Shown piece after piece: positions 52,442 to 55,170 of a stretch of 55,316 nt of DNA. Both the position numbers and the translations under genes were made by a program. The stretch lies in the NCBI GenBank assembly GCA_005889295.1, contig VBEY01000231.1, positions 1 through 55,316 on the forward strand. The letters are read 5' to 3'. The notes under the pieces are model-generated. The model saw only the letters and a list, made by a program, of their open reading frames with translations. It did no database searches and was not told where the DNA came from. Source of the stretch: Chloroflexota bacterium (lineage in GTDB: Bacteria > Chloroflexota > Limnocylindria > P2-11E). How positions within the stretch are numbered: position 1 is the first letter of the stretch; each line of letters starts with the position of its first letter.

Positions 52442-53884
52442 TCAGGAGTGCTCGTCTTCCTCGTCGTGCTCGTGGTCAAAACCCTCGTTCGGATGCCCGA
52501 GGTACGGAAACTCGTCAAGGTATGGCTTCTCGCCGGCCTTCGGCGCGGCGTTGGAGGTCCCGTCGGTCAGAAGTCCCGCGGCGGCGTCGGCCTTGAAGTC
52601 GGACCGCACCAGCGGCAGCGTCACGCCCGCGACAGCCCGGAGTTCGATCGCGACGACGTTGTCGGCAACGCGCCTCCCATTCGGGAACCCCGCGAGGTCG
52701 CCACCCAGGAGACCAAAGGGGCTCGGGTCGCTTTTCTTGGGCGGGATCGCCATATTGAGGCGGAGCATGTCCGCGATCCGCGGACCCGTGAAGTTCTGGA
52801 AGCCGGCGATGATCCCCGACGGGAGCCCGGTCGCGAGGATCGCGACGAGGTCGGCACGTGGCCGGTCGGCGGCCGCGGTCGTCGTCAGCAAAGTCTTGAG
52901 ATTGGCGAACACGCCCGGATACAGCACCGGCAGCAGGTTCTGCAGCTCGGGGTTCTGGTAGTAAGGCAGGAAGTCTGAGTCGCGGTGCGGCTCGCGCGCG
53001 TTCCAGCGATCCTTGCGGCCCACCGGAATGATGACCTCGTTGATGAGTGGGTTGCCCAGGCGCGACACCTGGGTCCACCCGCCGGCGGAAGTGCGCTGGC
53101 CCTCGTCGGTCTGCACCGAGCCGCGTTGCCGGCTCGCGGTCGCCCACACGCCGATCACCGACTTCGCGTCCTTGACGTCAGTCGGCATGGATCCGTCCCG
53201 GGTGAGGTCGGTCTTCGGGACCTGGATCGCGATCGTGTGCACGTTGTAGCCCTTCGTACCGTCCTGGCCGCCGGCCATCGGCAGGGGGATGAGGTGAAGG
53301 TTCTGGAACGGGCGAAGGGCACCGAGATCGAAGATCGAGCCGAGATCCACGAAGAAGCCTTCATCGCGCTGGCCGGCGAAGACCTTTACTCCGTCGGGCA
53401 GCATGCGGATCGCGGCGTTCGCGAGGTTCGCGTAATTGGGGGTCGATCGCGGGCCGATCCGCACCGGTGGGCTAACGATGTTGCGTCCGAGGACCGTCCT
53501 GCGCCAACCGTCGTCGTCCCCCTCGTCGCTCCGCACCGCGCGCGTCACCGAATAGATCTGACGCACGTTCCATGAGGGGCTGCCCAGCGAGTCGATCGGT
53601 CCGGTGTTGTAGAGGAACGTCTCGGGGTTGGTTACGCGTGTCCGGAAGCGAAACTGGTACACGACGTCGGCCATGGCGTCACCGTCGTTGTCGATCTTGA
53701 CCTCGTACAGCACGTCGTCGCCGAACTGGTAGAAGTTCGGCCCACCCGCCGGCTCCTCGAGCGGGATGTAGTTGGCGAGGATCGTCACCTTGGAGCTGTC
53801 GACGGGATCCACGAATGCGTAGAGGTCGGTGTTGTCGGCGACAGGGTCCTTGGAGATCTCGGGAGCTTCACGATGCGACGACAT
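52442..53884 (-). CDS. DUF4331 domain protein without signal peptide
   Basis: Start chosen at ATG 53884, preceded by GGGAGG. It gives MSSHREAPEISKDPVADNTDLYAFVDP, the hallmark DUF4331 N-terminal motif. The tail is His/acid-rich (GFDHEHDEEDEHS). Confidence 0.85.
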   Translation of the reverse strand: MSSHREAPEISKDPVADNTDLYAFVDPVDSSKVTILANYIPLEEPAGGPNFYQFGDDVLYEVKIDNDGDAMADVVYQFRFRTRVTNPETFLYNTGPIDSLGSPSWNVRQIYSVTRAVRSDEGDDDGWRRTVLGRNIVSPPVRIGPRSTPNYANLANAAIRMLPDGVKVFAGQRDEGFFVDLGSIFDLGALRPFQNLHLIPLPMAGGQDGTKGYNVHTIAIQVPKTDLTRDGSMPTDVKDAKSVIGVWATASRQRGSVQTDEGQRTSAGGWTQVSRLGNPLINEVIIPVGRKDRWNAREPHRDSDFLPYYQNPELQNLLPVLYPGVFANLKTLLTTTAAADRPRADLVAILATGLPSGIIAGFQNFTGPRIADMLRLNMAIPPKKSDPSPFGLLGGDLAGFPNGRRVADNVVAIELRAVAGVTLPLVRSDFKADAAAGLLTDGTSNAAPKAGEKPYLDEFPYLGHPNEGFDHEHDEEDEHS

Positions 53885-54155
53885 CGGTGGCCTCCCTGGC
53901 GATGGCGATGAGTCGCGAGACGAGTCCCGAGTCGCGGCGAACAATCTCGCGCGTCCCGACCATCACCACGAGCTCGCCCCTTCGTGCGTCGCTGACGTAC
54001 GCGACGATGGGCTCGGCGGTCGCGTCGTTCGCCAGGACGGCTCCTCCGCCGATCCCGCGCGCCGCGGCGAGGAGTCCCATCGCGGCCGTGCCGGCCGCCG
54101 CCGCCTTTATGACCGTGCGACGTGAATGCGTGGACGTCAGAACTTTTCGCGTCAT
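53868..54155 (-). CDS. small (95 aa) protein with a twin-arginine (Tat) signal peptide
   Basis: ATG 54155 is preceded by GGGAGGA. MTRKVLTSTHSRRTVIKAAAAGTAAMGLLAAARG contains an S-R-R-x-V-I-K motif plus an Ala-rich h-region. Its 3' end overlaps the DUF4331 start by 17 nt and contains that gene's RBS. Confidence 0.6.
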   Translation of the reverse strand: MTRKVLTSTHSRRTVIKAAAAGTAAMGLLAAARGIGGGAVLANDATAEPIVAYVSDARRGELVVMVGTREIVRRDSGLVSRLIAIAREATDVVAS

Positions 54156-54230
54156 GTCTTCCTCCCGAAACGGCGAGTGCCGATCCGGCCGGGAGATACG
54201 CGAGGAGAAGCGCAAATGGATCACCGCACG

Positions 54231-54236
54231 TACGCT
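54231..54236 (+). promoter_or_regulatory. TACGCT -10-like hexamer 7 nt upstream of ATG 54244
   Basis: TACGCT-CGGCGCG-ATG with no Shine-Dalgarno sequence. Confidence 0.35.
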
Positions 54237-54243
54237 CGGCGCG

Positions 54244-55170
54244 ATGGACCGCAAAATCCGGTTCGCGACACAGAGCGGTGGTCAGCCGACCGGCGCCGAC
54301 TGGCTCGATCGGGCGAAGCGACTCGAAGACATCGGGTACGCAACGATCTCCATGCCGGATCACATGGTGGGCGGCGCGTGGAGCAACCTGCCCGCGCTCG
54401 GCGCGGCGGCGGCGGTCACGACCAGGCTCCGCCTCGGAAACCTCGTCCTCGACAACGATTTCCGCAACCCCGTGGTGCTCGCGCGCGAGTACGCGACGCT
54501 CGACGTGATCTCGAACGGCCGCGTCGAGGTCGGCCTTGGCGCGGGCTGGTACGACCGCGATTACCGGAGCACGGGCATTCGGTTCGACCGCGGCCGGGTC
54601 CGAGTCGCCCGGCTCGCCGAGGGCGTGACGCTCATGAAGCGCCTGTTCACGGAGGACGAAGTGACCTTCGAGGGCACCTATTACCGGACCTCCCAGTCGG
54701 AGTGCCGGCCCAAGACCGTGCAGCAGCCGCGGCCGCCGTTTCTCATCGCGGCGGGCGGTCCACAGATCCTCGAGCTTGCCGGCCGGGAGGCTGACATCGT
54801 CGCGGTGATCGCGCCCGGCGCCGGAGTGCGGCCGCCCGCGCCGGACGACGTCGCGGCCACCGGCGTGCGGAGACAGCTCGATCTCGTTCGCGCGGCAGCC
54901 GGCGCGCGCTTCGCCGAGATCGAGCTCAGCTGCTTCGTCGACGTCACGCTGACCGACGATCGCGAAAAGACGATCGCTGAGCTCGCCGAGAAGGGGAACG
55001 TCGACCCGGCCGTCCTCGGTTCCTCGGTGTATCGCGGCATCGGGACGCTCGACCAGATCCGCGAGCACATCGTTCGGGTCCGGCGCGAGACGGGCATTAC
55101 GTACTTCTGCCTGCGGGGGCCGCACGTGGAGGAGCTGGCGCCCGTGGTGAGAGACCTCGCAGGCACTTAG
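54244..55170 (+). CDS. LLM-class (luciferase-like) F420-dependent oxidoreductase
   Basis: MDRKIRFATQ... with SMPDHM, RLRLGNLVLDNDFRNPVVLARE and VEVGLGAGW. 308 aa. The upstream part of track ORF 53815..55170 is a shadow. Confidence 0.8.
   Translation: MDRKIRFATQSGGQPTGADWLDRAKRLEDIGYATISMPDHMVGGAWSNLPALGAAAAVTTRLRLGNLVLDNDFRNPVVLAREYATLDVISNGRVEVGLGAGWYDRDYRSTGIRFDRGRVRVARLAEGVTLMKRLFTEDEVTFEGTYYRTSQSECRPKTVQQPRPPFLIAAGGPQILELAGREADIVAVIAPGAGVRPPAPDDVAATGVRRQLDLVRAAAGARFAEIELSCFVDVTLTDDREKTIAELAEKGNVDPAVLGSSVYRGIGTLDQIREHIVRVRRETGITYFCLRGPHVEELAPVVRDLAGT

Follow-up and report, generated by a model that had tools for sequence, protein, structure and literature searches.

Can a protein that lacks a signal peptide be exported by a small neighbour that carries one? 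This question is raised by a two-gene locus in contig VBEY01000231.1 of a Limnocylindria bacterium (Chloroflexota), where a 95-aa open reading frame (ORF) with a twin-arginine translocation (Tat) leader overlaps the gene for a 480-aa protein of the domain family DUF4331 (PF14224). The whole stretch of 55,316 nucleotides that was analysed is called the window below. An earlier interpretation made from the letters of this DNA (the sequence-only reading) had explained the arrangement by Tat hitch-hiking, in which the folded DUF4331 protein leaves the cell in complex with the small Tat-signal protein. Comparative genomics supports this interpretation through the conservation of the pair, the complementary distribution of signal peptide and partner, cell-wall sorting signals and the clustering of tat genes. 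We therefore regard Tat-partner-mediated export of DUF4331 by a "hitchhiker" pair as likely, and refer to the small protein as the partner and to DUF4331 as its proposed passenger.

The window pair

The elements that had been listed for the small ORF, namely its strong ribosome-binding site, its Tat leader (MTRKVLTSTHSRRTVIKAAAAGTAAMGLLAAARG), its 17-nt overlap with the next gene and the GGGAGG ribosome-binding site inside its 3' end, were all found in the sequence (Table 1). Within the overlap, GATGTCGTCGCATCGTGA encodes both DVVAS with the stop codon and, in a second frame, MSSHRE. The DUF4331 product begins directly with M-SSHREAP, and the in-frame extension 5' of its start (FAATRDSSRDSSPSPGRPP) is not signal-like. 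Its PF14224 match (E = 6e-137; 457.8 bits versus a cut-off of 27) extends over residues 2-465 and profile positions 1-421 of 421. Because the profile begins at residue 2, nothing precedes the domain. The two genes thus have the make-up of a hitchhiker pair, in that a passenger without a signal peptide adjoins a partner with a Tat signal.

The partner is a widespread family with an invariant twin arginine

A word-indexed search identified 92 partner homologues with lengths of 70-111 aa, two of which are shorter than the 88-111 aa of the others, and 0/92 carry a Pfam domain; the named homologues belong to Candidatus Limnocylindria, and the public annotation of partner proteins includes "hypothetical". 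An exhaustive search of 1.84 billion cluster representatives with a partner hidden Markov model (HMM) yielded 818 representatives at E <= 1e-3 (85 of them at E <= 1e-10), with lengths of 80-125 aa in almost every case; the long matches in the partner searches were low-complexity false positives. In look-ups begun from partner proteins, DUF4331 was located immediately downstream of the partner gene in 5/5 cases. Because of the 92 homologues, the 818 cluster representatives and this adjacency, we take the small ORF to be a real gene and not one that arose by chance in DNA of high G+C content.

In an alignment of 138 diverse partners with a mean column identity of 27%, R12 and R13 were the sole invariant columns (RR in 138/138), and P49, G60, G67, E70, D75 and L78 were near-invariant. 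The strict Tat motif [ST..]RRx[FL..][L..] was present in 130/138 partners, mostly as SRRxFL or TRRxFL, and 127/138 have A-x-A 12-42 residues after the RR. The window partner has a twin-arginine consensus, S-R-R-T-V-I-K, followed by the uncharged h-region AAAAGTAAMGLLAAA and by two candidate sites for signal peptidase I, A-A-A↓R and V-L-A↓N. Pfam TAT_signal, which aligns to its residues 11-28, is the only Pfam model that matches the small protein. At E <= 0.01, TIGR01409 and PF10518 matched 82 and 44 of the 138 partners, respectively.

The mature part of the partner had no Pfam, NCBIfam or PDB-sequence match; Pfam and NCBIfam recognise the Tat-signal part alone, and a PDB profile search with the partners matched only signal peptides (NapA, Rieske subunits, NosZ and residues 1-42 of the MelC caddie). 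In an AlphaFold2 (AF2) model, residues 1-47 were disordered and residues 48-93 formed a confident domain, with block means of the per-residue confidence score pLDDT of 93-97 over residues 51-90. This predicted beta-beta-beta-alpha domain of ~45 residues consists of strands 50-56, 61-66 and 69-74 and helix 76-93. A Foldseek search with the model returned nothing significant.

The pair is conserved across bacteria and archaea

From the DUF4331 side, a scan with one genome per species produced 80 loci, 79 of which include upstream DNA. They belong to Chloroflexota, Actinomycetota, Dormibacterota, Aminicenantes, Bathyarchaeota, Thermoplasmata, Nitrososphaerales and others, i.e. to at least five bacterial phyla and three archaeal lineages. 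The DUF4331 match starts at residue 1 in 78/80 loci and at residue 4 in one, and the remaining locus is truncated at residue 12. An HMM match to the partner was found directly upstream on the same strand in 74/79 of these signal-less DUF4331 loci. Two more loci (L019 and L061) have an evident, if divergent, Tat-signal ORF in the usual partner position, one has the partner downstream of DUF4331 (L034) and one on the opposite strand (L054). With these divergent or displaced copies counted, the partner is present in 78/79 loci, and only L068 has none. The adjacency seen in the window is thus conserved.

The distance from the partner stop to the DUF4331 start varied from the 17-nt overlap to a 150-nt gap. 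The overlap, which is identical in the loci given in Table 1, implies tight translational coupling in Limnocylindria, and the co-translation suggested by the sequence-only reading holds there but does not extend to the other lineages; the coupling is a trait of the Limnocylindria branch and not of the system. Partner and passenger distance matrices were correlated (Mantel r = 0.59, reached by 0/2000 permutations), which points to co-inheritance, and the partner evolves faster than the passenger (mean distance of 0.64 versus 0.36).

The sequence-only reading had also assumed that DUF4331 proteins normally carry their own signal peptide ahead of SSHREAP. This is true of other clades, but in the very large clade of the window protein the signal-less form is the rule and not an oddity. 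M-SSHREAP stands at residue 1 in 111/120 of the closest database relatives of the window DUF4331, and an M-SSHREAP start with R or K at position 5 was found in 119/120 of the closest relatives of a second DUF4331 query. Orthologues do not begin further upstream with a signal peptide. This outcome and a non-conserved small ORF were both named by the sequence-only reading as refuting, and neither was observed.

A cis signal peptide and the partner have complementary distributions

Twelve plasmid-borne DUF4331 genes encode their own N-terminal leader, mostly of the Sec type: ten full-length copies and the more distant copies of Adhaeribacter and Nostoc, the remaining sources being Streptomyces, Embleya, Miltoncostaea, Marinobacter, Sulfitobacter, Comamonadaceae, Paraburkholderia, Lichenicola, Pseudoalteromonas and Paracoccus. 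Predicted cleavage of these leaders is located exactly before [SA]-S-H (e.g. ...TSFA↓SSHREAP and ...AAGA↓SSHREAP). A partner HMM match was found in 0/12 of these loci, and the sole signal-less plasmid DUF4331 (Kitasatospora) has a partner (E = 1e-15). Because the leader-bearing copies have no partner and the signal-less Kitasatospora copy has one, a signal peptide in cis and a Tat partner in trans would be alternative solutions that lead to the same mature start residue.

The signal-bearing relatives share 32-45% identity with the signal-less clade, and 66 columns, including the SHREAP motif, are common to both groups. Across the exported and signal-less clades, the mature N-terminus and the 66 columns are conserved (at least 95% and at least 90%). 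In contrast, P355, G357, F362, N364, T366 and G367 reach at least 97% conservation among 74 signal-less proteins, whereas 10 signal-bearing proteins have gaps or other residues there. The segment that contains them (residues 352-367, TGLPSGIIAGFQNFTG) is a candidate partner-docking surface, which we offer as a lead only.

Small genes were also noticed 3' of proteobacterial signal-bearing DUF4331 genes (L086 6431-6676, L087 1933-2148 and L089 6499-6804). They encode lipoproteins with a lipobox (LTAC, VAAC and LAGC), and their partner-HMM scores are at noise level, so they were rejected as partner homologues. They are followed by genes for a tetratricopeptide repeat (TPR)-like protein and HupE/UreJ in L086 and L089, and by type II secretion genes instead in L087.

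A further, distant DUF4331-like clade of ~330 aa is annotated as "DUF4331 family protein" at ~25% identity (L104 2947-4616, L105 2944-3924 and L106 2956-3975). Its members start with M-S-N-H or M-S-H-H, again giving X-X-His, and a HupE/UreJ gene lies directly 3' in Rhizobium.

Sorting signals and tat genes point to export

The actinobacterial passenger of locus L099 was used as a query for long relatives. All 48 relatives of at least 525 aa start with M-SSH[RK]EAP. In 47/48, the C-terminus has the tripartite layout of a cell-wall sorting signal: about 12 residues separate the motif P-x-G-x-[PAV]-x-T-G from a hydrophobic stretch of ~20, and basic residues follow. In the sortase-type loci inspected (L099, Actinospica robiniae L101, Allobranchiibius L102, and L103), DUF4331 adjoins a gene for a class F sortase whose score exceeds the NCBIfam cut-off in 4/4 cases, and the signal-less passengers of this type do have the Tat partner. 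Because a substrate of a sortase has to get to the outer side of the membrane and these proteins have no signal peptide of their own, the sorting signals indicate that signal-less passengers are exported; the basic residues after the hydrophobic segment likewise place the bulk of the protein outside. The window DUF4331 has no such signal: its tail is rich in His and acidic residues and contains no hydrophobic segment.

Overall, about 14% of loci have tatA and tatC in a cluster with the pair. Counted up to a distance of 4 kb, tatC was found in 11/80 loci (six Bathyarchaeota, Chloroflexia, Gaiellaceae, two Actinomycetes and Kitasatospora) and tatA-like ORFs in 14/80; a tatA gene 3' of the sortase gene in Actinospica robiniae comes on top of the latter count. 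By a rough estimate, which was not computed, chance adjacency to tatC should be well under 1% if a genome has one or two tatC genes.

In Bathyarchaeota, we observed a fixed cluster (L013 963-4000) of tatA, tatC, a gene for an ArsR-family helix-turn-helix protein, a gene for a 102-aa hydrophobic protein of no known family, the Tat partner and DUF4331. A cluster of this kind is also present in L012, L014-L016 and L021, and in L019 just the ArsR and membrane-protein genes precede the pair. It resembles a Tat module that is dedicated to one substrate and has a regulator of the metal type.

In locus L103 (2865-6668), from a metagenome-assembled genome of Pseudonocardiales, the whole pair is tandemly duplicated. 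A partner and an anchorless 465-aa DUF4331 come first, then a second partner and a DUF4331 of 555 aa that carries a sorting signal, and last the His-rich protein and the class F sortase, with a Zip transporter ~1.5 kb past the sortase. A conserved protein of ~111-127 aa that belongs to no known family adjoins the sortase-type loci (L099 6068-6403, L101 7916-8263 and L103 6665-7048); it has a variable His-rich insert, e.g. HDHGHDHEHDHDPGHDHGHDHGHGHG in L103, and no signal peptide. It could be a cytoplasmic metal-binding accessory protein.

Proposed export route and its alternatives

According to the route that we propose, DUF4331 would fold in the cytoplasm, where methionine aminopeptidase would remove the initiator Met to give a Ser-Ser-His N-terminus. 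The folded protein would then be bound by the ~45-residue beta-beta-beta-alpha domain of the partner, whose twin-arginine signal peptide would take the complex through the TatAC translocase, and signal peptidase would probably cleave the partner after export. In a Limnocylindria-like host (Chloroflexota), the passenger would be a soluble or loosely attached extracytoplasmic protein, and in some Actinomycetota it would then be fixed to the wall by the class F sortase.

Several observations weigh against this route. The window holds no tat, sortase or metal-transporter gene, and the window leader scores just under the curated cut-offs of Pfam TAT_signal (19.7 versus 22.7 bits) and TIGR01409 (13.7 versus 16.7). 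No natural partner-DUF4331 fusion was found among the matches listed in both homologue searches, 150 of them from the HMM search. The leaders of the signal-bearing relatives are mostly of the Sec type, so the DUF4331 fold itself does not require Tat; Tat would be required only because a folded complex must cross. Furthermore, the distant ~330-aa clade (Rhizobium, Methylocystis and Streptomyces plasmids) is signal-less and has no partner, so that a missing signal alone is no proof of hitchhiking and some members of the family may be cytoplasmic. The metal role discussed below is drawn from gene neighbourhood and sequence motifs only.

The partnerless clade, which is located beside HupE/UreJ in Rhizobium, would also suit a reading in which the two proteins are operon-mates that are not co-exported, the partner being an independent Tat substrate (e.g. 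a binding or regulatory factor) and DUF4331 a cytoplasmic protein that perhaps receives metal at the inner side of a permease. The MelD operon offers a precedent, as it shows that an exported pair may have paralogues that stay inside the cell (PMC2758597), and the contact between partner and passenger is a putative one. We nevertheless consider such operon-mates unlikely, because signal-less relatives with the same partner bear sorting signals with basic residues behind the hydrophobic segment, because a strict either/or of cis signal and partner is predicted by an export signal in trans and not by a separate function, and because the mature N-terminus and the 66 shared columns are conserved across exported and signal-less clades. 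Alternatively, DUF4331 might use another export route (an unrecognised internal signal or a non-classical pathway) and meet the partner after export as an extracytoplasmic chaperone, anchor or metallochaperone. The tiny, faster-evolving mature domain of the partner would be expected of such an accessory factor, and the cis-Sec relatives show that DUF4331 can cross a membrane unfolded. However, the signal-less proteins start with M-SSH and have no hydrophobic N-terminal segment, the partner is missing precisely where a cis signal exists, which would be odd for a post-export chaperone, and it is tatA and tatC, not sec genes, that cluster with the pair; this route thus seems very improbable.

The 17-nt overlap and the position of DUF4331 in the +1 frame relative to the partner might finally suggest that the small ORF is the signal and propeptide of one DUF4331 precursor, whose reading frame was either broken by a frameshift error in sequencing or is restored in the cell by programmed +1 frameshifting. 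The comparative data effectively refute this, and we give it next to no credence, because spacing and strand arrangements vary across genomes: the two-gene layout occurs in at least 74 independent genomes, with spacings from the 150-nt gap to the overlap and a start codon for each gene, and the partner is on the opposite strand in L054 and downstream in L034. Moreover, the DUF4331 start codon is always located exactly one residue before [ST]-S-H, and the matches listed include no fusion proteins. Export by the Tat partner therefore remains the preferred reading.

The mature N-terminus and the metal context of DUF4331

In the AF2 model of DUF4331 (pLDDT 85, predicted TM score of 0.88), the body is beta-rich, the C-terminal part is helical, and both residues 1-5 and the end of the tail (471-480) are disordered. 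A PDB sequence search with the DUF4331 profile gave nothing at E <= 1, and Foldseek comparison of the model with the PDB returned noise (TM below 0.2). Because there is no PDB resemblance by sequence or fold, the function cannot be read from the fold, and its inference depends on context and motifs.

S3, H4, R5, E6, A7 and P8 are invariant in the signal-less and signal-bearing clades alike. The mature N-terminus has the form X-X-His in every clade examined, distant ones included (SSH, TSH, ASH, SDH, SNH and SHH), with exactly two residues always lying between the start codon or the cleavage site and the His. In the signal-less proteins, removal of the initiator Met is expected from the Ser or Thr at residue 2. 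Amino-terminal Cu(II)- and Ni(II)-binding (ATCUN) sites have the form NH2-X-X-His and need a free alpha-amine, a second residue other than Pro and His at position 3. The mature N-terminus of DUF4331 has this form and is a candidate metal site of the ATCUN type; the likeness is one of sequence pattern only. An N-terminal nucleophile hydrolase, which the N-terminal Ser/Thr might suggest, was set aside as Paraburkholderia has Ala at this position.

The signal-bearing copies have genes for TPR proteins as neighbours, together with HupE/UreJ or a NicO-like "nickel transporter". Near the signal-less copies, NicO (PF03824) was found in 11/80 loci, an extracytoplasmic function (ECF) sigma factor in 15/80 and an ArsR-type regulator in 7/80 (Bathyarchaeota and Nitrososphaerales); sortase-type loci add the His-rich small protein and, in one case, the Zip transporter. 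As the most likely role of DUF4331 we propose the capture of a divalent metal (Ni, Co or Cu) for permeases of the NicO or HupE/UreJ type, for which the free N-terminal X-X-His site and the His-rich tail would serve. This extracytoplasmic role is held with lower confidence than the export mechanism, and we find its chances to be close to balanced.

A loop of the form D-N-[DN]-G-D was noted at window 53668-53694 (DUF4331 residues 64-72, IDNDGDAMA) and is kept in all clades, even in the most distant DUF4331-like proteins (NIDNNGD, NIDNDGD). We take it to resemble the Ca2+-binding DxDxDG or FG-GAP-type loops that are, as we assume, typical of extracellular proteins.

Comparison with known Tat hitchhikers

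The closest analogue of the pair is MelC1/MelC2 of Streptomyces, where the small Tat-signal helper MelC1 carries the signal-less tyrosinase MelC2, both encoded by the melC operon (PMC2758597). In both cases a bicistronic unit encodes an upstream small Tat-signal protein and a downstream protein without a signal peptide, a metalloprotein known to hitchhike in the case of MelC2 (PMC2758597) and a proposed hitchhiker here. Both passengers are metal-associated extracytoplasmic proteins outside redox chains, on the DUF4331 side as proposed. The partners are not homologous, however: the profile of the 138 partners matches the caddie 1wx2_B only over signal residues 1-42 (E = 0.07), and the MelC1 family NF047833 matches 7/138 partners in the signal part only, with a best E of 0.0016 that is far below the cut-off, so that no homology of the mature domains was detected. 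The mature domain of MelC1 has about 100 residues versus about 45 in the partner, MelC2 is a type-3 copper protein whereas the passenger here is DUF4331, and the copper-chaperone role of MelC1 has no established counterpart in the partner. Finally, MelC is confined to a few actinomycete and related lineages, whereas the DUF4331 pair is present in many bacterial phyla and in archaea.

In Tat hitchhiker complexes, a twin-arginine subunit carries signal-less subunits across as a folded complex (PMC10924467, PMC4273604). The classical cases that we compared are the NiFe hydrogenases (HyaA/HybO with the large subunit), DmsA-DmsB, FdnG-FdnH and PaoABC. Their signal subunit is a large enzyme subunit that contains a cofactor, whereas the DUF4331 partner has a minimal domain, has no predicted cofactor and seems to be an escort only. 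The classical systems are of the redox type, whereas no redox cofactor is predicted in either protein of the pair. C-tail anchoring of some passengers, predicted in the case of DUF4331, is common to both, and some DUF4331 passengers appear to be sortase substrates. A 2024 survey of tail-anchored Tat proteins stated that signal-less C-tail proteins exported with Tat partners were beyond its search, and none of the six N-out candidates of S. coelicolor from an earlier search was encoded beside a candidate Tat substrate (PMC10924467). The signal-bearing PF14224 proteins, by comparison, belong to the same family and have the same mature N-terminus and the same theme of neighbouring metal transporters; they differ in having a cis, mostly Sec-type signal and no partner gene, whereas the window clade would have exchanged the cis signal for a trans-acting Tat escort and also has segment 352-367.

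The mechanism class, Tat hitchhiking, is thus already established, and what is new is a non-homologous, very widespread family of escort and passenger. Only a few Tat hitchhiking systems are known, mostly redox enzymes, with MelC1/MelC2 as the helper-type exception. If correct, our reading adds a very widespread, non-homologous hitchhiker with at least 818 partner sequence clusters across bacteria and archaea, whose signal-bearing component is stripped down to a minimal escort domain, and it supplies the signal-less C-tail or sortase-targeted exports with Tat partners that the 2024 survey could not find (PMC10924467). It would also provide a first functional handle on DUF4331, a large family: the protein would be located outside the cytoplasm, its N-terminus is fixed as X-X-His, and permeases of the Ni/Co type recur among its neighbours. 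Our literature search found no paper that mentions DUF4331 or PF14224, and no description of this pair under HupE/TPR/nickel or Tat-hitchhiking topics. Direct tests are possible in the cultured carriers Actinospica robiniae, Kribbella, Kitasatospora, Allobranchiibius and Thermogemmatispora.

A more far-reaching version of this reading can be put forward only tentatively, and taken as a whole we would sooner doubt it than adopt it. The partner would be an ancient bacterial and archaeal family of dedicated trans-acting signal peptides, with a minimal escort domain of ~45 residues that serves only to take DUF4331 through Tat; in certain lineages it would do so by its own locus-encoded TatAC and deliver a hitchhiking sortase substrate. 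Its cargo would be a metallophore-like surface protein of new fold that feeds Ni, Co or Cu via X-X-His to NicO or HupE/UreJ.

Features of the locus

Table 1. Features of the partner-DUF4331 locus in window coordinates (AF2, AlphaFold2)
Feature	Coordinates	Strand	Basis and details
Shine-Dalgarno-like GGGAGGA of the small ORF	54160..54166	-	Read from sequence; 4 bases 5' of the ATG, GGGAGG core 5 bases 5'
Partner gene, 95-aa Tat-signal protein and putative escort (MTRKVLTSTHSRRTVIKAAAAGTAAMGLLAAARGIGGGAVLANDATAEPIVAYVSDARRGELVVMVGTREIVRRDSGLVSRLIAIAREATDVVAS)	53868..54155	-	ORF with ATG at 54155 and TGA at 53870-53868; 92 homologues; 818 cluster representatives; DUF4331 next in 5/5 partner-side look-ups
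Partner residues 1-42, Tat signal region	54030..54155	-	n-region S-R-R-T-V-I-K, Ala-rich h-region, possible V-L-A↓N site
R12 and R13 codons of the partner	54122-54117	-	Only invariant columns in 138 homologues
Partner residues 48-93, predicted folded mature domain	53877..54014	-	AF2: three beta strands and one helix
GGGAGG ribosome-binding site of the DUF4331 gene, within the 3' end of the partner ORF	53891..53896	-	Read from sequence; 6-nt spacer to the ATG at 53884-53882
17-nt gene overlap	53868..53884	-	Read from sequence; same overlap in L001, L003, L005, L006 and L098
Signal-less DUF4331 gene, 480 aa, proposed passenger	52442..53884	-	PF14224 over full length; AF2 model
M-SSHREAP, candidate X-X-His (ATCUN-type) metal site after Met removal	53861..53884	-	Residue conservation across clades
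DUF4331 residues 352-367, clade-specific segment	52784..52831	-	Alignment of signal-less versus signal-bearing proteins
C-terminal His/acid-rich tail of DUF4331 (PNEGFDHEHDEEDEHS)	52445..52492	-	ORF translation; clade consensus HPHEGYEHSHD
10-bp G+C-rich inverted repeat, GGCGCCGCGC-aaacc-GCGCGGCGCC, 5-nt loop	52394..52418	.	Between the convergent DUF4331 and Rieske-oxygenase genes

A scan of the locus for promoters and terminators gave no consensus sites. The inverted repeat 3' of the DUF4331 gene, which may mark the end of the bicistron, was not flagged by the terminator scan because it lacks a T-run. The upstream neighbour of the pair is a divergent gene for an F420-dependent oxidoreductase of the LLM class, and the downstream neighbour is a convergent Rieske oxygenase gene; because of these flanking orientations, the window unit is predicted to be a two-gene operon. 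The mechanically called ORF of 451 aa at window 53815-55170 (+) is an over-extension of the oxidoreductase gene. Because its match to TIGR03621 (F420-dependent LLM oxidoreductase) begins at residue 148, the true start is probably near 54253, so that ~97 bp of divergent intergenic DNA would be common to the oxidoreductase and partner genes, and the 5' part of the called ORF only shadows the partner gene on the opposite strand.

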